Source: Shigella phage S2_02. From it: DNA of 50,597 nucleotides. A program made the position numbers and the translations under genes. Shown here piece by piece: positions 1 to 50,597 of this stretch. Position 1 is the stretch's first letter. The number at the start of each line of letters is the position of its first letter. The DNA is taken from sequence record OQ223306. One strand, 5' to 3'. The notes under the pieces were generated by a model. It made no database searches, was not told the origin of the DNA, and saw only the letters and a program-made list of their open reading frames with translations.

Positions 1-127
1 GGGGGGGGAATTGGTGTTACCCAGTTCACCTGGTAGTCATCTCCATTTTTAGCAAAAAGTGCTATCCATTACGATTACGCTTGATTGTGTGTTAATCCAT
101 GTATATGATTTGCCTAAATCGCAATCG
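1..127. repeat. Terminal direct repeat copy 1 (identical to 50471-50597); probable circular-assembly overlap
   Basis: Bases 1-127 (starting with a G8 run) are repeated exactly at the window end; 127 bp is a typical assembler k-mer overlap. Confidence 0.9.
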
Positions 128-342
128 TAGACAAAATTACACCAAATTACGACTTATAATATACATATAGATATATGTATATATATAATATATAAGTGTT
201 TTTTTTATTTATATATATAGATACTATTATTTGTAATATGGCTGTATAGCGTGTCTACTATGTTAATCGTTGGATGCTCTGGTTATGATATTCATGTTTA
301 TATATACAGTAGTTTTATCGGCTCATATTTATATGGGAAAAG

Positions 343-369
343 CGATTAACACGATTAACACGATTAACC
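343..369. repeat. 3 x 9-bp tandem repeat CGATTAACA in early control region
   Basis: cgattaaca cgattaaca cgattaacc read directly; upstream of first rightward gene. Confidence 0.8.
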
Positions 370-413
370 ACACTTAAAATAGGCTCGCAAGCCTTGACGC
401 AAGAGGGTCGCCG

Positions 414-445
414 TGTAACACTATGATTAGAGACATAGTGTTACA
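414..445. promoter_or_regulatory. Perfect 12-bp inverted repeat TGTAACACTATG-N8-CATAGTGTTACA abutting first early gene; candidate operator
   Basis: Palindrome read directly; shares GTGTAACA core with motifs in 30596-30950; a TTGACG -35-like hexamer lies at 394-399. Confidence 0.45.
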
Positions 446-483
446 TGTTAATCATGGTGTATATTGAAAATGAGGAGAAAGAT

Positions 484-1059
484 ATGAGTTCTTACCAATC
501 AGACGCAGTACAGGCAGCAATTCAGGCGGCTTACGAGAAATCTGGCGTGACCGTTGAGAAGCGCCAGGAGGCAAAAGTGACCGATGTTATCCGTGCCGCT
601 TGCGATCAGCTTTATGGTGATGGCGAGAGTGTCGAGTTCTCATTCGACGCTACTCAGATGGCTGAGGCAGCAGTGAGAAAGTCAGTCCCTGACGCTGATG
701 ATGATGCTGTTAGCGGATATGCCGAGTCCTGGTTGCTCGGGAAGACGGAAGAGATTAACGAGAAGTTTAAATCATCATTCATCACCCCGATCGTATCGCG
801 ACACTTCTCCAAAATCGGCAAGTCGGTCAAGGTGAGCGTAACCATGAACGATGAGAAGTTGCGAGTCGTTACTATCTCAGTGAGCGACGAAGAAGTTCCA
901 GTGAAGAAGCGCCGCAGTCGGAAAAAAGTTAGCCTGGCTGATTGCCTGGATTCGTTTGTGGTTGATGTGGGTAAACTGGCTGATAGCGAATTGATGACTC
1001 GCGATGTAAATGAGATCGTGCGCCAGATGAAAGCGCATATCGAAAAATGTGGATTATAA
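484..1059 (+). CDS. hypothetical early protein (191 aa)
   Basis: ORF-track frame 445..1059; ATG 484 preceded by GAGGAG SD at 472-477; first gene of rightward early region. Confidence 0.6.
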   Translation: MSSYQSDAVQAAIQAAYEKSGVTVEKRQEAKVTDVIRAACDQLYGDGESVEFSFDATQMAEAAVRKSVPDADDDAVSGYAESWLLGKTEEINEKFKSSFITPIVSRHFSKIGKSVKVSVTMNDEKLRVVTISVSDEEVPVKKRRSRKKVSLADCLDSFVVDVGKLADSELMTRDVNEIVRQMKAHIEKCGL

Positions 1060-1065
1060 GGAGAG

Positions 1066-1401
1066 GTGACTATGTTTACTAATATGTTTGATCCGAAGGT
1101 GATGGAAAGACGAAAACTGGAAAGCGAGAAGCAGGAAGAGAACATCAAGAAGATAGCTGATGCCGTGACTGGTAAAAAATTAATCAAAGTAAACCTTAAT
1201 ACCATTGGCCCAGCTTACGACTTAAGAGGTCTTGGCAAGAAAGAGGCGTCAGTGAAGGTTCTTAGACTTATTCACGAAATCAAGAATCAGTACAAGATAG
1301 CCCTCAAGATGAAGAGCCTTAATGTTCCGCATTGCGAGCTTGAGAACATTACTGAGCCGGACTGGTGGGAAATCACCGACGTCGAGTTTACCGTAGAATA
1401 G
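1066..1401 (+). CDS. hypothetical protein (111 aa)
   Basis: ORF track; SD AAGGAGAGG before ATG; stop TAG lies inside conserved box 1397-1417. Confidence 0.6.
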   Translation: MTMFTNMFDPKVMERRKLESEKQEENIKKIADAVTGKKLIKVNLNTIGPAYDLRGLGKKEASVKVLRLIHEIKNQYKIALKMKSLNVPHCELENITEPDWWEITDVEFTVE

Positions 1402-1441
1402 CACTTTTTGTTAAAACCGGATCGGGATAACGCGGTATAGT
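1397..1441 (+). promoter_or_regulatory. Early promoter module: 21-bp box (AATAGCACTTTTTGTTAAAAC) + 18 bp + TATAGT
   Basis: Box 1397-1417, -10-like TATAGT 1436-1441 embedded in hairpin GGGATAAC/GTTATCCC; CATCGA start-like motif follows; gene ATG at 1473. Confidence 0.5.
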
Positions 1442-1472
1442 TATCCCATCGACAACGAATGAGGAAACGAAG

Positions 1473-1667
1473 ATGGAAACGAAAATTGACGTAGTGGTTG
1501 TTCAGCGCGATTCAACTCACGAGAAGGGTCTGTTCAAGAAAGGAACCGAAATCACGATCGACCTTGAGGATATGGTTTCGTATCACTCTAGCCTTACCTG
1601 GAATGTTGTGCGCGTAGGTAGCGACTACAAACTCAAAGGCTTTAACACTTACTTTGCGGAGGCTTAA
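1473..1667 (+). CDS. hypothetical protein (64 aa)
   Basis: ORF track; SD GAGGAAACG; about 25 nt downstream of predicted start of module 1397-1441. Confidence 0.55.
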   Translation: METKIDVVVVQRDSTHEKGLFKKGTEITIDLEDMVSYHSSLTWNVVRVGSDYKLKGFNTYFAEA

Positions 1668-1669
1668 TC

Positions 1670-2140
1670 ATGGCGACAATTACCGTATTCCTGGCTAAAG
1701 ATGAGATTGATGGCGAAATGTCATTCTTCGCGTTTGAGCACAAAACCGGATCGCACTGGCACACTTACAGCCATTACACGGTTATCTCAATCGAAGCGTA
1801 CGACGGCGAACTGCTCACTGATAAACTGAGTAATTTCATTGAAGCCGTTAAAGCTAGCGGCGGCTGCGAGTGGAAGGAAGATCACGAAGTTATGCGAATG
1901 TTTGAGATGGTCAATCCGGTTCGCCTTGAGTCGTTCGAGCTTGATGCTAATGTGACTATCAAGGTGAGAAAGTCGGGTGAGTTATTGCCAGGGATGCGTG
2001 TGCTGACTGGTTACTCTGGCCGTAAGGTGTGGCGCACTGTATCCAAGATTCGCCAGCGCTCGGCAACATGCTATAGCGTATTCTTTGATGATGGTTGGAA
2101 TATGATGTCCGGTAGTGAGGTAAAGTATCTCACCAAATAG
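1670..2140 (+). CDS. hypothetical protein (156 aa)
   Basis: ORF track; GAGG SD; stop TAG inside box 2136-2156. Confidence 0.6.
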   Translation: MATITVFLAKDEIDGEMSFFAFEHKTGSHWHTYSHYTVISIEAYDGELLTDKLSNFIEAVKASGGCEWKEDHEVMRMFEMVNPVRLESFELDANVTIKVRKSGELLPGMRVLTGYSGRKVWRTVSKIRQRSATCYSVFFDDGWNMMSGSEVKYLTK

Positions 2141-2180
2141 CACGAATTGCTAAAACCGGATCGGGGTATCTTGCTATAGT
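2136..2180 (+). promoter_or_regulatory. Early promoter module: box AATAGCACGAATTGCTAAAAC + 18 bp + TATAGT
   Basis: Box 2136-2156; TATAGT 2175-2180 in hairpin GGGGTA/TACCCC; CATCGA follows; gene at 2219. Confidence 0.5.
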
Positions 2181-2218
2181 TACCCCATCGAGACGAGATA
2201 CCAATCAGAGGATTCACC

Positions 2219-2449
2219 ATGTCAATCGTAAAAAACCAGCAAGCCATCGATTCAACCAATAACAACCGCTTTGCTATTTTCATCACTCGCGACAACAAGC
2301 GTTTTGCGGTCAAGGTAGTACCGGGTGGATACAATACATACATGGAAGATAACGGAAAATGGGTTCGGTGTGACAACCTCTCAAACTTCCTGGTCTGGAA
2401 TGCAGAACTCCAGGGATTTGATGATATCAGCACTTTAATTGAGGAGTAA
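2219..2449 (+). CDS. hypothetical protein (76 aa)
   Basis: ORF track; SD CAGAGGA in conserved CCAATCAGAGGA context. Confidence 0.55.
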   Translation: MSIVKNQQAIDSTNNNRFAIFITRDNKRFAVKVVPGGYNTYMEDNGKWVRCDNLSNFLVWNAELQGFDDISTLIEE

Positions 2450-2454
2450 TAATC

Positions 2455-2682
2455 ATGCCACGTTACAGCAACCTAACTCAACTGACCCGCGTTAACGGGC
2501 ACATGATTCCAGCAAAATCCACTCACTACGCTATTGGCGCAAAACACGGAGTCTATTTCAAGTGGCGCGGTCAATGGAACTTCACGGCGGTGAGTAATTT
2601 CTACATGCGCGTTCCAGGTGACGACCCGCAATCGGTAGTCGAGAACTCAATCGGCGACCACAAGATCGAGGTACTGAAATGA
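2455..2682 (+). CDS. hypothetical protein (75 aa)
   Basis: ORF track; SD GAGGAG. Confidence 0.55.
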   Translation: MPRYSNLTQLTRVNGHMIPAKSTHYAIGAKHGVYFKWRGQWNFTAVSNFYMRVPGDDPQSVVENSIGDHKIEVLK

Positions 2683-2789
2683 ACTTCAACACGATTGCAT
2701 TATGGTCTGCCGTCTGGTTCTTCTGCATGGGTCACGCCATTGTTGGGATCGTAATCATGTTACTACTGTGTGCCGGAGCGTTTGAATGA
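2679..2789 (+). CDS. small hydrophobic peptide (36 aa), putative membrane micro-protein
   Basis: ATGA overlap with upstream stop; hydrophobic translation MNFNTIALWSAVWFFCMGHAIVGIVIMLLLCAGAFE; below ORF-track size cutoff. Confidence 0.3.
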   Translation: MNFNTIALWSAVWFFCMGHAIVGIVIMLLLCAGAFE

Positions 2790-2959
2790 TGCGCATTCTA
2801 ATTTGCATGATGGCGGCAGTCGCCATAACTATCCTGGTAGTGTCCGGCTGCGGAGAGGTCAAAGAGAGATGCCATGAAACCGGAAACCAGGTTACTACTT
2901 TCGTGATGGTTGGAAACGTATTGCTACCAATCACATCAAATGAAATCACTTGCGAATAA
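2786..2959 (+). CDS. putative small lipoprotein (57 aa)
   Basis: ATGA overlap with previous micro-ORF; N-terminal signal-like segment with lipobox-like VVSGC; stop TAA falls inside box variant 2955-2975. Confidence 0.4.
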   Translation: MMRILICMMAAVAITILVVSGCGEVKERCHETGNQVTTFVMVGNVLLPITSNEITCE

Positions 2960-3762: not shown

Positions 3763-3807
3763 AATAGCACGAATTGCTAAACCTTCCGCAAGGCCATTTG
3801 ATATAGT
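3763..3807 (+). promoter_or_regulatory. Early promoter module: box AATAGCACGAATTGCTAAACC + 18 bp + TATAGT
   Basis: TATAGT 3802-3807 in hairpin AAGGCCA/TGGCCTT; predicted start about 3814 supports ATG 3848 as gene start. Confidence 0.5.
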
Positions 3808-5214: not shown

Positions 5215-5433
5215 ATGGCTACTATCATGACAGCAGAAGATGCAGCACGCGAAGCAGTGGAAGGAATGCGCCCAAATAGCTCCAGAATCGCCCACTACTA
5301 CAAATTTGAGGTGTCGGCAGTGCAATTGGTCCATGAAATTTTAAGGCTCCCACAAGTCGATTCAGCGCGCGTGGTGACGTGCTTAAAAAATTATTTTTGC
5401 ATCACTATTAAAACGAATAGCACGAATTGCTAA
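5215..5433 (+). CDS. hypothetical protein (72 aa)
   Basis: ORF track; weak SD; C-terminus NSTNC and stop are encoded by box 5416-5436; an alternative 36-codon hydrophobic ORF 5120-5230 has a better SD. Confidence 0.4.
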   Translation: MATIMTAEDAAREAVEGMRPNSSRIAHYYKFEVSAVQLVHEILRLPQVDSARVVTCLKNYFCITIKTNSTNC

Positions 5434-5460
5434 AACTTGCTCAAGGGCATTTGTTAGAAT
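5416..5460 (+). promoter_or_regulatory. Early promoter module: box AATAGCACGAATTGCTAAAAC + 18 bp + TGtTAGAAT
   Basis: -10-like TAGAAT 5455-5460 in hairpin AAGGGCAT/ATGCCCTT; gene at 5501. Confidence 0.5.
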
Positions 5461-6142: not shown

Positions 6143-6715
6143 ATGAAAACAGCTATCGTTTTAAACGGCGCGCCTGGAGCGGGAAAAGACACTATCGGAT
6201 GCATCCTGGCTGACACTTACGATCACGTAGCCTTGCGCAGCTTCAAAGCGCCAATGTTTGAGATTGCCCGGGCAATCCTGGGTGAAGCTAACTACGAGTA
6301 TTTCATGTTCTTGTATGAGGACCGTCGATATAAAGAAGAGCCAGCATCCATCCTGAACGGTAAAAGCCCACGCCAGTTTATGATCTGGATTAGCGAAGAA
6401 GTCATCAAGCCGCAGTTCGGAAATCGCTTCTTCGGTATGCGAGCGGAAAGCAAGGTGAAAGAGTCGCACTCCCTTTCGGTATTTACTGACGGTGGATTCA
6501 AAGATGAGATCTTGCAAATGATTGAAGGCGATATCCAAGTCAAGCTATGCCGCATACATCGCAACGGCTGCAACTTCGATAACGACAGTCGAGATTATAT
6601 CTACCTGGATAATATGATCGGTGTCAACGGTTATCAGGAATGTGACTTCTTCTCTGTCGAAGGTCATCCAGAAATTACCGCTCAGCACATAGCCGCCACG
6701 TTCATCAATAAATAG
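6143..6715 (+). CDS. P-loop nucleotide/nucleoside kinase-like protein (190 aa)
   Basis: ORF track; Walker A GAPGAGKDT at N-terminus; stop TAG inside box 6711-6731. Confidence 0.65.
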   Translation: MKTAIVLNGAPGAGKDTIGCILADTYDHVALRSFKAPMFEIARAILGEANYEYFMFLYEDRRYKEEPASILNGKSPRQFMIWISEEVIKPQFGNRFFGMRAESKVKESHSLSVFTDGGFKDEILQMIEGDIQVKLCRIHRNGCNFDNDSRDYIYLDNMIGVNGYQECDFFSVEGHPEITAQHIAATFINK

Positions 6716-6755
6716 CACGAATTGCTAAAACGTCGATGGGGTGATTTGATATAGT
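6711..6755 (+). promoter_or_regulatory. Early promoter module: box AATAGCACGAATTGCTAAAAC + 18 bp + TATAGT
   Basis: TATAGT 6750-6755; flanking 9-bp stem CGATGGGGT/ACCTCATCG has one G-T (G.U) pair; gene at 6788. Confidence 0.5.
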
Positions 6756-8492: not shown

Positions 8493-8501
8493 TAAATACT
8501 A

Positions 8502-8524
8502 ACCCGCTTCGGCGGGTTTTTTTA
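8502..8524 (+). terminator. Rho-independent terminator closing the rightward early region
   Basis: CCCGC-TTCG-GCGGG hairpin followed by T7. Confidence 0.7.
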
Positions 8525-8535
8525 TGCCTGCAATA

Positions 8536-8561
8536 TGGTAAAATAACACTAAATGTTAAAC
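8536..8561 (+). promoter_or_regulatory. Putative late promoter (extended -10 TGgTAAAAT) overlapped by box copy AATAACACTAAATGTTAAAC
   Basis: TGGTAAAAT 8536-8544; box 8542-8561 spans predicted start and abuts TerS SD. Confidence 0.4.
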
Positions 8562-8576
8562 AAAGAGGATGGATTT

Positions 8577-9101
8577 ATGAGTGAACCTAAGAACGTTCCC
8601 GTTGTTCAGGGGGGTAATTTCAAAGAGCTATACAAGAAAAAGTTCGGCACTGTTCTTGCGAAGAACCGGGCAATGACACCAGAGCAACTATTCGATCTGT
8701 CAGTGAAGTATTTCGAATGGGCCGAGGACAACGCAATCAAGGCGTCAGAATCAGCCAGCTTTCAGGGTGGCGTTTATGAATCGCTTGTCCATAAGCCGCG
8801 CGTCTTCACCTGGACCGGATACCGACTATTTATCGGTGCAAGCGAGGCTGCAATCATTAAGTGGAAGCGAGAGGAAGAGTACAGTGAGGTTATGGAGTTT
8901 GTGGAATCGGTAATCAACGAGCAAAAATTCCAGCTTGCCGCCAACGGTGTTATTAATGCCTCCTTTATCGGTAAGGATCTCGGAATCGATAAGCCAACCT
9001 CAATAAATATCGAAAACTCGTCAGCCTCCGCATCGACAGTAGTCGCCACTACTGAGGATGCAATGAAGGACGCGGTAGACAAGGTTATTGGATTGCTGTA
9101 G
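8577..9101 (+). CDS. terS: terminase small subunit (174 aa)
   Basis: ORF-track frame 8553..9101; ATG 8577 has SD AGAGGA; position immediately upstream of TerL in packaging module. Confidence 0.55.
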   Translation: MSEPKNVPVVQGGNFKELYKKKFGTVLAKNRAMTPEQLFDLSVKYFEWAEDNAIKASESASFQGGVYESLVHKPRVFTWTGYRLFIGASEAAIIKWKREEEYSEVMEFVESVINEQKFQLAANGVINASFIGKDLGIDKPTSINIENSSASASTVVATTEDAMKDAVDKVIGLL

Positions 9102-9129: not shown

Positions 9130-9705
9130 ATGGGTTTGACTATGAACACAGGATTAGCAAGAGAAGTAAGTTCAGATGATGAGGCGTGGTTGTTGGAGCA
9201 CGTATATTACGACGAATCATCACCTACATCGTTGAGATTTAAGAACATGTTTCATAGGAATAAGGAAAACTCCGCCGCATTCAGGGAGGTTACTAAAGAC
9301 GGTTATTTTAGAGGTCAGCGCGGTAGTAGGGGTAGGAGGTTTTTTGCTCATCGCGTGGTGTGGTTCCTTCATTATGGGGTATGGCCTGAAAAAATAGATC
9401 ACATTGATGGTGACAGACAAAACAATGCAGTAAAAAACCTGCAAGAAACTGACGCGATGAGGAATCAGCAGAATAGAGATTGCAATGATATTGCTGGTGG
9501 ATATTTTGAGAAAAGGGTTGGTCGATGGCATTGCAGGATTAAGAGGAAAGGCAAGGTAACATTCATTGGTTATTTTGACACTCCGGAAGAATGTAGAGCA
9601 GCATACGCGAAAGCGAAATTAGAAATTCATGAAAACTTGTGTGAAAGGTCATTTAATGAAGGGGAGTTGAAAAATGTTGCAATGGGAAGAGTTAAACAAT
9701 CTTGA
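9130..9705 (+). CDS. HNH endonuclease with AP2-like domain (191 aa)
   Basis: ORF track; HNH motif region HRVVWFLHYG...IDHIDGDRQNN; paralog of 38762..39241 and 49475..50002; overlaps TerL start by 32 nt. Confidence 0.75.
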   Translation: MGLTMNTGLAREVSSDDEAWLLEHVYYDESSPTSLRFKNMFHRNKENSAAFREVTKDGYFRGQRGSRGRRFFAHRVVWFLHYGVWPEKIDHIDGDRQNNAVKNLQETDAMRNQQNRDCNDIAGGYFEKRVGRWHCRIKRKGKVTFIGYFDTPEECRAAYAKAKLEIHENLCERSFNEGELKNVAMGRVKQS

Positions 9706-11242
9706 GAAGCTGGCTATAAAGAAAATATCTGAGGCAAGCTTCTCTGGAATGATTAGGGCATGGTTCCAGATTATGCAGGCGCAAAAATACTCAATGAACT
9801 GGCATCACATTTACTTGTGTCATGAGGCTGAAGAGATTGTTGCGGGTCGTCGCGGTAACACCATCTTTAACGTAACGCCAGGATCATCAAAAACTGAGAT
9901 ATTCTCAATCCACCTCCCGGTGTACGCAATGCTTAAGTGTAAAAAGATTCGTAACCTTAACGTGTCGTTTGCCGACAGCCTGGTGAAGCGTAACAGTAAG
10001 CGAGTTCGTGAGATTATCAGCAGCAACGAATTCCAGGAGCTATGGCCCTGCAAGTTCGGCACATCTAAAGACGAAGAGATTCAGGTTCTGAATAGTGACG
10101 GAAAGGTTTGGTTTGAGCTAATCTCCGCAGCGGCTGGCGGTCGTATTACAGGTTCTCGTGGTGGCTACATGATGCCGGGATTCTCAGGGATGGTAATGCT
10201 CGACGACATCGACAAGCCTGATGATATGTTCTCAAAGGTTAAGCGTGAGCGTACGCACATGCTATTGAAAAACACCATCCGTTCCCGTCGTATGCATAAC
10301 GAGACTCCTATTATTGCAATTCAGCAACGACTACATGCTCAGGATTCAACATGGTTCATGATGAATGGCGGGATGGGTATTGAGTTTGACCAAATATCAA
10401 TACCGGCACTGGTGACGGAAGAATACGGAAAGACACTTCCTGATTGGTTGCAGCCTTACTTTGAGCGTGATGTTTTATCGTCTGAGTATGTAGAATTGGA
10501 TGGCGTTAAGCATTACTCTTTTTGGCCCAGCAAGGAAAGCGTTCACGACCTGTTAGCGTTACGAGAAGCAGATCAGTATACCTTTGATTCTCAGTATCAG
10601 CAGAAACCGATCGCGCTGGGTGGCTCCGTGTTTAACTCAGAGTGGTGGACTTATTACGGCAGCAGCCTTGACGCTGATGAGCCAGATCCGGGTAAATATG
10701 ATTACAGATTCATCACTGCCGATACCGCTCAGAAGACAGGTGAGCTAAACGACTACACAGTCTTTTGCTTGTGGGGTAAGAAGAACGATAAGGTTTACTT
10801 TATTGACGGCATTCGCGGTAAGTGGGAAGCGCCGGATATGGAGAAACAATTTACCGCTTTCGTTAATCAGGCATGGAGACACAATAAATCAATGGGCGTG
10901 CTTCGAAAAATCTACGTGGAAGATAAAGCGAGCGGTACGGGCCTTATCCAGAACCTCAGGAAAAAGACTCCGATCTCTATCACTCCGTTGCAGCGTAACA
11001 AAGACAAAGTTACCCGCGCTATGGATGCTCAGCCAGTTATTAAAGCCGGGCGTGTGGTTCTGCCAGAAGAGCACCCTATGCTTGCTGAAATTATCACTGA
11101 ACACAGCGCCTTCACTTACGATGACACCCATCCGCATGATGATATCGTCGATAACTTCATGGATGCGGCGAACATCGAATTGCTGACCATTGATGATCCT
11201 ATCGAGAGAATGAAGCGGCTCGCCGGGATGGTTAAGCGGTAA
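9674..11242 (+). CDS. terL: terminase large subunit (522 aa)
   Basis: ORF track; ATPase Walker-A-like PGSSKT and Walker-B-like VMLDDID; size and position typical of TerL. Confidence 0.9.
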   Translation: MLQWEELNNLEKLAIKKISEASFSGMIRAWFQIMQAQKYSMNWHHIYLCHEAEEIVAGRRGNTIFNVTPGSSKTEIFSIHLPVYAMLKCKKIRNLNVSFADSLVKRNSKRVREIISSNEFQELWPCKFGTSKDEEIQVLNSDGKVWFELISAAAGGRITGSRGGYMMPGFSGMVMLDDIDKPDDMFSKVKRERTHMLLKNTIRSRRMHNETPIIAIQQRLHAQDSTWFMMNGGMGIEFDQISIPALVTEEYGKTLPDWLQPYFERDVLSSEYVELDGVKHYSFWPSKESVHDLLALREADQYTFDSQYQQKPIALGGSVFNSEWWTYYGSSLDADEPDPGKYDYRFITADTAQKTGELNDYTVFCLWGKKNDKVYFIDGIRGKWEAPDMEKQFTAFVNQAWRHNKSMGVLRKIYVEDKASGTGLIQNLRKKTPISITPLQRNKDKVTRAMDAQPVIKAGRVVLPEEHPMLAEIITEHSAFTYDDTHPHDDIVDNFMDAANIELLTIDDPIERMKRLAGMVKR

Positions 11243-15775: not shown

Positions 15776-15803
15776 TTGACGCTTTAACAAAAAGTGCTAT
15801 TAT
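15776..15803 (+). promoter_or_regulatory. Putative sigma70-type promoter for major capsid gene (TTGACG-16-TATTAT) with box copy in the spacer
   Basis: TTGACG 15776-15781, TATTAT 15798-15803; reverse-orientation box 15781-15801 fills the spacer. Confidence 0.45.
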
Positions 15804-19510: not shown

Positions 19511-19565
19511 CTGTAAAATCATCCTATCAACTTTATTCAATTAACTTTTAACAAAAAGTGCTATC
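19491..19565 (+). promoter_or_regulatory. Putative promoter for tail chaperone (TTGCGC-17-TAAAAT) with box copy in 5' UTR
   Basis: -35 TTGCGC 19491-19496 inside hairpin, -10 TAAAAT 19514-19519, reverse-orientation box 19545-19565 just before SD. Confidence 0.4.
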
Positions 19566-23581: not shown

Positions 23582-23596
23582 CGCTACATAACAAAA

Positions 23597-23619
23597 GCCC
23601 GCCTTGCGCGGGTTTTTTT
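23597..23619 (+). terminator. Rho-independent terminator (hairpin CCCGCCTTGCGCGGG + T7), copy 1
   Basis: Same 15-nt hairpin recurs at 25777-25791. Confidence 0.65.
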
Positions 23620-23632
23620 GTAGCTGTAGAAT
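23604..23632 (+). promoter_or_regulatory. Putative promoter TTGCGC-17-TAGAAT overlapping terminator
   Basis: -35-like hexamer lies inside the terminator hairpin; -10 at 23627-23632. Confidence 0.35.
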
Positions 23633-23660
23633 GGTTGCAGGTAAACAAGAGGAAAAATCA

Positions 23661-25174: not shown

Positions 25175-25770
25175 ACGATGTAAAAGTAATCAAATTATCC
25201 GGTTCACTTGGGAGACGCTTCGGCGTCTTTCACCGATTTGCTGTTGACTCTTACCCGGAAGCTATCCGGGCGCTATCCAGTCAGGTGGACGGATTTAAAG
25301 AATACATGCAAAGCGAGGTAGGATCTCGTAGCAAGTTTGCAATATTTGTGGATGGCGTTAACGTGGGCCACCATGAAGAGGAAAAATTCAAGTGCGCGAA
25401 AGAGATAAGAATCGTACCTATCCCTACTGGCTCTAAGACAGGAGGTCTATTCCAGGTTGTATTGGGCGCGGCAATAATGGTTGCAGCATTCTATACTGGC
25501 GGCGCGTCTCTAGCTTTAATGGGAACAATGTCCTCGTCTCTGTTTATGATGGGCGGCGCTATGGTGCTTGGCGGTGTGATGCAGATGATTTCACCTCAGC
25601 CTGGTGGCGCAAACTTTGAAGTTCAATCAAGCAAGAATAAACCTTCGTACGCGTTCGGCGGTGCTGTCAATACGACGGCGGCGGGATACCCTCTCCCGGT
25701 CCCGTATGGATATCGCGCCGGAGGTGGCGCAACTTTCTCAGCAGGTTCTTATGCCGAGGATATGAGTTAA
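25171..25770 (+). CDS. tail assembly protein (lambda I-like) (199 aa)
   Basis: ORF track; hydrophobic Gly/Ala-rich central segment; position between K-like and J-like genes. Confidence 0.7.
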   Translation: MNDVKVIKLSGSLGRRFGVFHRFAVDSYPEAIRALSSQVDGFKEYMQSEVGSRSKFAIFVDGVNVGHHEEEKFKCAKEIRIVPIPTGSKTGGLFQVVLGAAIMVAAFYTGGASLALMGTMSSSLFMMGGAMVLGGVMQMISPQPGGANFEVQSSKNKPSYAFGGAVNTTAAGYPLPVPYGYRAGGGATFSAGSYAEDMS

Positions 25771-25775
25771 AATTA

Positions 25776-25799
25776 ACCCGCCTTGCGCGGGTTTTTTTT
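25776..25799 (+). terminator. Rho-independent terminator (hairpin CCCGCCTTGCGCGGG + T8), copy 2
   Basis: Hairpin sequence identical to 23598-23612. Confidence 0.65.
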
Positions 25800-25839
25800 C
25801 GCCTGTATAATGGGTTCACCGATAAATAGCACAAAAAGG
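25783..25839 (+). promoter_or_regulatory. Putative promoter for J (TTGCGC-17-TATAAT) with box-like AATAGCACAAAAAGG in 5' UTR
   Basis: -35 inside terminator hairpin, TATAAT 25806-25811, box-like sequence 25825-25839 adjoining SD. Confidence 0.4.
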
Positions 25840-48404: not shown

Positions 48405-48449
48405 ACTATACCAGCCATCCCGGATGCGCGTTTAGCAAAAAGTGCTATT
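48405..48449 (-). promoter_or_regulatory. Leftward early promoter module (box + 18 bp + TATAGT)
   Basis: Box 48429-48449; minus-strand TATAGT at 48405-48410; CATCC start-like motif. Confidence 0.5.
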
Positions 48450-49434: not shown

Positions 49435-49479
49435 ATTATGCCAAATCACACCGATCGAGTTTTAACAAAAAGTGCTATT
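49435..49479 (-). promoter_or_regulatory. Leftward early promoter module (box + 18 bp + CATAAT)
   Basis: Box 49459-49479 contains stop of HNH gene; minus-strand -10 at 49435-49440. Confidence 0.45.
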
Positions 49480-50002
49480 TGCCGTGGTTTTCATGGTATC
49501 CGTGTTCATATTCAGCGGCTTTCTTTGCGGAAATCGCATCATCAAAACTTGAGAAGCACCCTATGTAAATTCTCCTTCCTCGCTTTCCCCCTCCAATCCT
49601 TACAACCCATTTGCCATGTTTATTTTTATGCACACCTGGTATGCCACTTGTATTGTTTTTCTGTTTTGATGTGTTTCGCATATTTCCTTTGTGATCTTTT
49701 AGCTCAAAGTTTATTGCTCTGTTATCAGTCGTAATGTGATTTACGTGATCAACCTCCTTTCCTTCAGGTATAGTCCCATAGTGCATTTCATAGCATATTC
49801 TATGAACTTTTAGGTTATAACGTTTTCCGTTTATAGTAAGTGCGGTTTCTAAATATCTGCCACCACTACCCAAAGAGCCAACCTCATTACCAGCATTGCA
49901 AGCATTCCATTGTTTAACTCTTGATTTGTGGATATCTTTTCTTTCTTTCCAGAACAGCTTTCCAGTTTTCGGATTGTATGTAAAGTAATCATGCCAATTC
50001 AT
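49475..50002 (-). CDS. HNH endonuclease with AP2-like domain (175 aa)
   Basis: ORF track; HRICYEMHYGTIPEGKEVDHVNHITTDNR HNH core; paralog of 9130 and 38762 genes. Confidence 0.8.
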   Translation of the reverse strand: MNWHDYFTYNPKTGKLFWKERKDIHKSRVKQWNACNAGNEVGSLGSGGRYLETALTINGKRYNLKVHRICYEMHYGTIPEGKEVDHVNHITTDNRAINFELKDHKGNMRNTSKQKNNTSGIPGVHKNKHGKWVVRIGGGKRGRRIYIGCFSSFDDAISAKKAAEYEHGYHENHGK

Positions 50003-50114: not shown

Positions 50115-50249
50115 TTATCGCTTACCCTGACCGTTGCAGGCCGGACACGTAATTCTCTGCATCATCCAGACTCCAGAGACTTCAGTGAATAACGGAACCA
50201 TAGTAAATCCACGACCAGCACACTGACTACAAATCTGTTTAACTCTCAT
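50115..50249 (-). CDS. small zinc-ribbon-like protein (44 aa)
   Basis: ATG with SD AGAGGAAG; two CxxC pairs (CSQC ... CPAC); below ORF-track cutoff. Confidence 0.4.
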   Translation of the reverse strand: MRVKQICSQCAGRGFTMVPLFTEVSGVWMMQRITCPACNGQGKR

Positions 50250-50283
50250 TTTTGCTTCCTCTTCTGATTGGTTGATGTGATGA

Positions 50284-50329
50284 ATCATACCCTGCCAACA
50301 TAGCTAAGTCGTTAGCAAAAAATGCTATT
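50284..50329 (-). promoter_or_regulatory. Leftward early promoter module (box + 19 bp + TATGAT), first of leftward early region
   Basis: Box (revcomp AATAGCATTTTTTGCTAACGA) 50309-50329; minus-strand -10 at 50284-50289; CATCA start-like motif. Confidence 0.45.
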
Positions 50330-50470
50330 CCAATAATTGCTCATTATTCCATCAATAGTGGAATATGTGGAATAATTTTGATTGTGATTGATTGCGAATG
50401 ATGAAACGTGATTATTGCATGGTGCGCAACAGTTGGTTGATTTGTTGCTGAGAATGCAATGATTGTGAGA
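50330..50470. repeat. Repeat-rich non-coding control region (TGGAAT/ATTCCA and GATTG repeats) ending in G8
   Basis: Short direct and inverted repeats read directly; continues across the assembly junction into 1-445. Confidence 0.5.
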
Positions 50471-50597
50471 GGGGGGGGAATTGGTGTTACCCAGTTCACC
50501 TGGTAGTCATCTCCATTTTTAGCAAAAAGTGCTATCCATTACGATTACGCTTGATTGTGTGTTAATCCATGTATATGATTTGCCTAAATCGCAATCG
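50471..50597. repeat. Terminal direct repeat copy 2 (identical to 1-127)
   Basis: Exact match to window start; repeat may continue beyond window end. Confidence 0.9.

Follow-up and report, generated by a model that had tools for sequence, protein, structure and literature searches.

The 127-bp end overlap of Shigella phage S2_02 as the probable product of a circle-closing assembly of a T1-type genome opened at a G8 run

The window analyzed here is the whole 50,597-nucleotide stretch of Shigella phage S2_02 (OQ223306), and all positions refer to it. The window is that of a Tunavirus (T1-like, Drexlerviridae). Collinearity with T1 extends along the entire window, in the same orientation, with 40.7 kb aligned in order at 84–97% identity. 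The closest phage records were approximately 93–97% identical and the taxonomy of the nearest relatives was Tunavirus. IMG/VR held no match to the junction, and three proteins of the window had no entry in a large protein-to-contig index. The ends of the window matched ULIM2, Lg3, ISF002, ADB-2, T1, and Shfl1 at 82–96% nucleotide identity. The small and large terminase subunits shared 165 of 174 and 496 of 522 amino acids with those of T1 and also matched PHROG terminase families. In the T1 record, TerS is annotated with similarity to P22 gp3. The major capsid protein was 98% identical to that of T1 at the amino acid level.

An HNH_3-type (homing-like) endonuclease ORF was found at 9130–9705 (+), between TerS and TerL. 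Among the matches listed this insertion was common only to phage Lg3; similarity at the nucleotide level returned at window 9680–9748 in T1 and the remaining listed relatives, the TerL gene becoming similar to that of T1 from 9748. The first 60 or so amino acids of TerL, beside the HNH ORF, were the part most diverged from T1. A terminator-like hairpin (CCCGC...GCGGG with a T run) was present three times, at 8493–8543, 23589–23639, and 25768–25818, each copy followed by a conserved CTGTAnAATGG motif. The combination agrees with the "transcripton" modules of terminator and promoter that have been described in the late region of T1.

The two ends of the window meet inside a non-coding stretch of approximately 665 bp, made up of 50289–50470 and 1–483, as judged from ORF maps and PHROG hits. 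This stretch separates the leftward right-arm genes, the last of which lies at 50115–50288 (-), from the rightward left-arm genes, the first of which starts at approximately 484 (+). The switch in strand and GC skew falls within the same divergent region. Short repeats, both direct and inverted, were numerous, an AT-rich tract was present, and a preliminary description that placed the junction in repeat-rich non-coding DNA with a G8 run was borne out. The unit CGATTAACA occurs three times in tandem at 343–369, 5' of a perfect 12-bp inverted repeat at 414–445 (TGTAACACTATG / CATAGTGTTACA, 8-nt loop), which sits approximately 40 nt upstream of the first left-arm gene. The inverted repeat and the CGATTAACA units may be operator or regulatory sites. 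Sigma-70 promoter-like matches in the junction region showed no excess over shuffled controls. Two overlapping terminator-like matches on the minus strand at 381–403 were slightly above the shuffled mean. TTGC/GCAA motifs 5' of the junction were considered as a distinctive array (a possible TerS site) and rejected; their density was 5 per 100 bp compared to a genome mean of 1.3, but 5–6 was reached elsewhere. The coordinates of the features are given in Table 1.

On the right-arm side, the gene at 50115–50288 is the first of the leftward operon and encodes a 57-amino-acid Cys-rich protein (CSQC...CPAC) that is zinc-finger-like. A second HNH endonuclease ORF (phrog_99) adjoins the junction region at 49475–50002 (-). 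Many relatives annotate a DNA (cytosine) methyltransferase in this place, which suggests gene replacement at the right genome end.

Table 1. Features of the S2_02 window and left ends of related phages. The anchor is the intergenic repeat copy at 50311–50328, and distances are nucleotides downstream of it.
Feature	Position	Strand	Basis or remark
G8 homopolymer at overlap start	1..8 (second copy 50471-50478)	+	End of conserved purine-rich tract GTGAGAGGG...
Left overlap copy, real single-copy genomic sequence	1..127	.	Single-copy and internal in related phage records
Intergenic repeat copy inside overlap	48..65 (duplicate 50518-50535)	-	ATAGCAC-N4-TGCTAAA match
Left half of non-coding region beyond overlap	128..483	.	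AT-rich tract 150-240
Terminase small subunit	8553..9101	+	95% amino acid identity to T1 TerS
Terminase large subunit	9674..11242	+	95% amino acid identity to T1 TerL; start codon uncertain
Right half of divergent non-coding region	50289..50470	.	ORF maps, PHROG hits, strand and GC-skew switch
Intergenic repeat copy just upstream of first leftward gene (anchor)	50311..50328	-	Kept in Tunavirinae, Braunvirinae, and Tempevirinae
Other intergenic repeat copies	1398-1415, 2137-2154, 3764-3781, 5417-5434, 6712-6729, 48431-48448(-), and 16 more
Probable pac-end zone, upstream part	50414..50470, continuing to ~50	.	Comparison with relatives
Right overlap copy, very probably a redundant assembler duplicate, to be trimmed	50471..50597	.	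Length 127 equals the SPAdes k-mer overlap artefact
T1 left end	+101 from anchor, window 50414		Record position 1, which rests on the record's repeat_region annotation and secondary papers
TLS left end	+136 from anchor		Record position 1, at which AGATTT begins, the pac sequence assigned after restriction mapping
S2_02 window position 1	+158 from anchor
MSK left end	+165 from anchor, ~window 28-33		PhageTerm terminus 36,862, mapped by equal spacing between flanking anchors (151 vs 154 nt)
SU57 left end	+183 from anchor		Record position 1 from PhageTerm and coverage step; 18 bp from MSK terminus

Positions 1–127 and 50471–50597 are 100% identical with no mismatch, as determined by comparison of prefixes and suffixes over the whole window. 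The longest prefix equal to a suffix is exactly 127 nucleotides and both copies lie at the extreme ends. No third copy and no reverse-complement copy of the segment was found on either strand of the whole window. Every 127-mer of the circularized genome is unique. Chance cannot account for an exact match of 127 nucleotides within 50 kb (approximately 1e9 position pairs x 4^-127). Subtracting one copy leaves a unique length of 50,470 bp (50,597 - 127). Both the exact recurrence of the first 127 bases and a unique genome of approximately 50,470 bp had been put forward in the preliminary description, and the computed identity and prefix-suffix length agree with them. The overlap starts exactly at the first G of the G8 run, the preceding base being the A at 50470, and nothing distinguishes its right boundary at 127|128. 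No unusual secondary structure was predicted in the 127 nucleotides of the overlap (z = -0.66). No Rfam families or tRNAs were found.

The motif ATAGCAC-N4-TGCTAAA gave 25 matches in the whole window, 24 of them distinct, compared to 0.28 expected. The copies are mostly intergenic and run along the direction of transcription; those at 15783–15800 and 19547–19564 oppose the local gene direction. They often stand within a longer repeat of approximately 60 nt ending in TATAGTTACCCCATCGA. The motif matches aaATAGCACnnnTTGnTAAAA, the consensus of the 21-nt intergenic repeat of TLS, which has no known function and is reported to be present in T1 and Rtp as well (PMC11447400). The overlap holds one of the 24 copies in the window. 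As in TLS, these repeats are dispersed and of a regulatory type, and they are unrelated to the terminal overlap itself. The palindrome TAGCA-N5-TGCTA was tried as a pac-specific element and rejected, being a copy of this family repeat; it was kept as a positional anchor only.

The T1-like phages SH6, TLS, SU57, Sfin-1, and MSK have been described as packaging by headfuls from pac, with terminally redundant DNA of limited permutation, and headful pac packaging has been reported for T1. For T1 and TLS, a submolar pac fragment, limited permutation, and a redundancy of kilobases in virion DNA are known from publications and record annotation. The T1 record (NC_005833, MK213796) annotates a repeat_region at 1..2800, not a short direct terminal repeat, and this region is read as terminal redundancy. 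By homology of terminase, gene order, and capsid, S2_02 would also follow T1-type pac-initiated headful packaging. An earlier expectation that T1-type headful packaging would give permuted ends was upheld as to the T1 type (TerL and TerS 95%, major capsid protein 98%, collinear genome). The permutation itself is probably only limited, with one end fairly defined, because T1-type packaging starts at pac and runs for only a few headfuls. Since the capsid protein is so close to that of T1, the headful should be similar to that of T1, which is approximately 51.6 kb by the record annotation (48,836 + 2,800). On a unit of 50,470 bp this would leave approximately 1.2 kb (approximately 2%) of redundancy. 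S2_02 shares genus, gene order, and terminase with T1 and its window opens within 56 bp of the T1 left end. The real redundancy of T1, however, amounts to kilobases, differs between successive headfuls and is invisible in an assembled unit genome, whereas the S2_02 overlap is a fixed 127 bp.

In the default SPAdes series for long reads the largest k is 127, and a graph cycle is output with an overlap of k bases. The overlap length in S2_02 matches this maximum k, and a SPAdes-type assembler is presumed for this record. Artificial end overlaps of 127 bp have been documented for SPAdes contigs (Philipson et al., 2018, PMC5923482). The T1-like phage U136B showed the same 127-bp terminal repeats on assembly and these were removed by its authors (PMC8104045). 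The overlap in those cases and in S2_02 is exact, 127 bp long and placed at the extreme ends of a single phage contig, and U136B is likewise a T1-like headful phage. S2_02 differs in that the overlap was left in the sequence and in that its opening node is traceable to the G8 run; nothing material separates them otherwise. With one copy removed, the junction sequence was also found unbroken in the interior of more than 25 records of related phages and of a metagenome contig of 49.8 kb. The contiguous records include LHE71, ISF002, ADB-2, ULIM2, Lg3, SA30RD, UP30, the Sfin phages, and OLFX01000699.1. A metagenome scan for independent k = 127 assemblies opening at the same spot gave three contigs, too few to compare.

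The overlap could be thought a genuine short direct terminal repeat of the virion DNA, with exact ends of the T7/SP6 type. It is exact and terminal and lies in non-coding DNA, much as the repeats of T7, T3, and SP6, of approximately 100–250 bp, stand in non-coding DNA at both ends of a linear sequence. Assemblers can also render true terminal repeats as end overlaps. They can collapse such repeats too, so the single-copy contiguity seen in relatives is by itself compatible with a true short repeat. Phages of the T7/T3/SP6 type differ, however, in terminase type and family, and in them specific cut sites delimit the repeats, over which read coverage is doubled. The S2_02 terminase pair is 95% identical to that of T1, a classic pac-headful phage, and is of the T1 type rather than the exact-repeat type. 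The right boundary of the overlap is featureless. The restriction data of relatives fit permuted, headful DNA, and the T1 record gives a redundancy of 2.8 kb. Each of the related records listed matches the segment at one location only, either internal or at one end. A true short repeat is very unlikely indeed, because the length equals k, the terminase is of the T1 type, the redundancy of T1 is on the scale of kilobases and no homologous end repeat appears among the matches to the related records listed.

The 127-bp overlap is not a biological feature. It is very probably the k-mer overlap of a SPAdes-type circle-closing assembly (k = 127) of a terminally redundant T1-type headful genome, opened at the G8 node. 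Packaging would begin at pac on the concatemer and proceed by headfuls. With terminally redundant and partly permuted virion DNA, reads would bridge every unit-length junction, and the junction-bridging reads would close the de Bruijn graph into a cycle, giving a contig with a k = 127 end overlap. The unit genome would then measure 50,470 bp and contain the 127 bp once. The view of the preliminary description that the sequence is a circular-type assembly and does not have mapped ends was thus supported by the match to the SPAdes k, the contiguous junction in relatives, and the kinship to T1.

The break point of the circle is not arbitrary, as it coincides with a unique G8 run. No other G or C run in the genome exceeds 6, and those that follow it in length are one G6 and one C6. 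The G run varies among relatives. It is G5 in JMPW2, G6 in T1 and ADB-2, G7 in JMPW1, and GGGAGG or GGGATG in most others, so that the G8 of the window is the longest among the relatives compared. Sets of 127-mers were computed for G9, G10, G7, and G6 variants of the circle. The G9 and G10 variants rejoin the reference path exactly at the 127-mer of window 1–127. The G7 and G6 variants would instead yield nodes at positions 2 and 3. The genome is proposed to have been opened exactly at G8 because reads in which the G run is longer would come back to the main path at that 127-mer. A small share of such reads, produced by slippage during sequencing or by a truly heterogeneous phage population, would put a branch node at the observed start. 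The loop would then presumably have been written out from its remaining (anchor) node, leaving the contig opened at G8.

Two observations speak against an opening by the homopolymer alone. The orientation of the window is the same as that of the T1 record and its start is within 56 bp of the T1 start. Such agreement with T1 is expected by chance approximately 0.1–0.2% of the time, and a random opening in the pac-end zone and in the T1 orientation approximately 0.1% of the time. The opening point may be fixed by more than the homopolymer, either by physical pac ends or by human choice.

The position of the pac end was approached by comparison, using as an anchor the repeat copy conserved in three subfamilies (Table 1). 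The measured or assigned left ends of relatives lie 100–185 nt downstream of it. The pac-derived end of S2_02 is expected, from these comparisons, between approximately 50414 and approximately 50. It had been stated earlier that the termini are unreadable from the sequence. This holds for the sequence alone, and comparison with T1, TLS, MSK, and SU57 adds a rough pac-end location. Other records open nearby. Position 1 of Shfl1 corresponds to window 50468, 3 bp from the S2_02 start. SH2 opens at window 14, and IME167 and Henu5_2 open at 33|34. The T1 start is shared to the base by JMPW1, JMPW2, FCWL1, phi2457T, and Chapo.

The purine-rich tracts that correspond to each other beside the presumed pac cut are GTGAGAGGG in Tunavirus, GGTGAGTGAGTGAATG in MSK and GAGTAGTGAGTGAGTAG in TLS. 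The simplest account of the opening point is that the sole slippage-prone G tract of the genome belongs to this conserved purine-rich tract beside the pac cut. A nucleotide-level description of a T1-type pac cleavage signal was not found in the literature searched. It is possible, though doubtful, that window position 1 is at, or a few tens of bases from, the true pac-cut end of first-headful chromosomes and that the G5–G8 tract GTGAGAGGG... is part of the pac cleavage signal.

Similarity among relatives falls sharply just to the right of the pac-end zone, at approximately 70–130. Shfl1 and SA30RD diverge from the window past approximately 72, and two metagenome contigs (Ga0079226; loci L025 and L026) both break at approximately window 109. 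MSK (record 36,880) and SU57 are approximately 95% identical until exactly SU57 position 1 and unrelated past there. The pattern in these alignments resembles a mosaic or recombination boundary located where packaging starts.

The overlap could be artefactual and the opening still fixed by real pac-cut ends at or near position 1, which would then approximate the true terminus. The start of the window does lie within a zone of approximately 110 bp that holds the T1 record start (50414), the TLS pac, the MSK terminus and the SU57 start. Shfl1 (-3), SH2 (+13), and IME167 and Henu5_2 (33|34) open close by, and any sequence joined before position 1 yields the same 127-mer node. The mapped ends of relatives, however, mostly miss position 1, by 14–50 bp on its right or by 56 bp on its left. 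The alignment of Tunavirus with Braunvirinae is weak here and anchored by spacing only, and PhageTerm gave no clear termini for some T1-like phages. The exact match with the first base of the unique G8 is more simply explained by homopolymer variants. An opening at real pac-cut ends is on this evidence unlikely, though not negligible. In the route proposed for it, numerous fragments ending at the same base, together with leftover adapter or chimeric k-mers, would have made the graph node.

Human choice would mean that the authors rotated the record to the T1/Shfl1 convention, the overlap having no bearing on where the contig opens. Records are commonly reoriented to T1, the five records named above share the T1 base, and the S2_02 record has the T1 orientation, with its first base no more than 56 bp from that of T1 and 3 bp from that of Shfl1. 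A rotated contig that still carried a k-mer overlap would, however, show an internal tandem duplicate and not a terminal one. The start is also exactly at the G-run node and not at the T1 or Shfl1 base. Rotation by the authors is accordingly quite improbable, and the opening of an assembly cycle at the G8 node is retained as the preferred explanation.

Curators of this record should remove the last 127 bases, give the genome length as 50,470 bp, and avoid labeling the ends as direct terminal repeats. Automated calls of the type "DTR = complete genome" would otherwise enter a false packaging feature. If position 1 does lie at or near the pac-cut end, leftover assembler overlaps in T1-like contigs could be mined for pac ends. 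By comparison, the pac-end zone of Drexlerviridae would lie in the divergent early-promoter region, approximately 100–185 nt from a conserved repeat and beside a purine tract. This zone offers a concrete target for the mapping of T1 pac.
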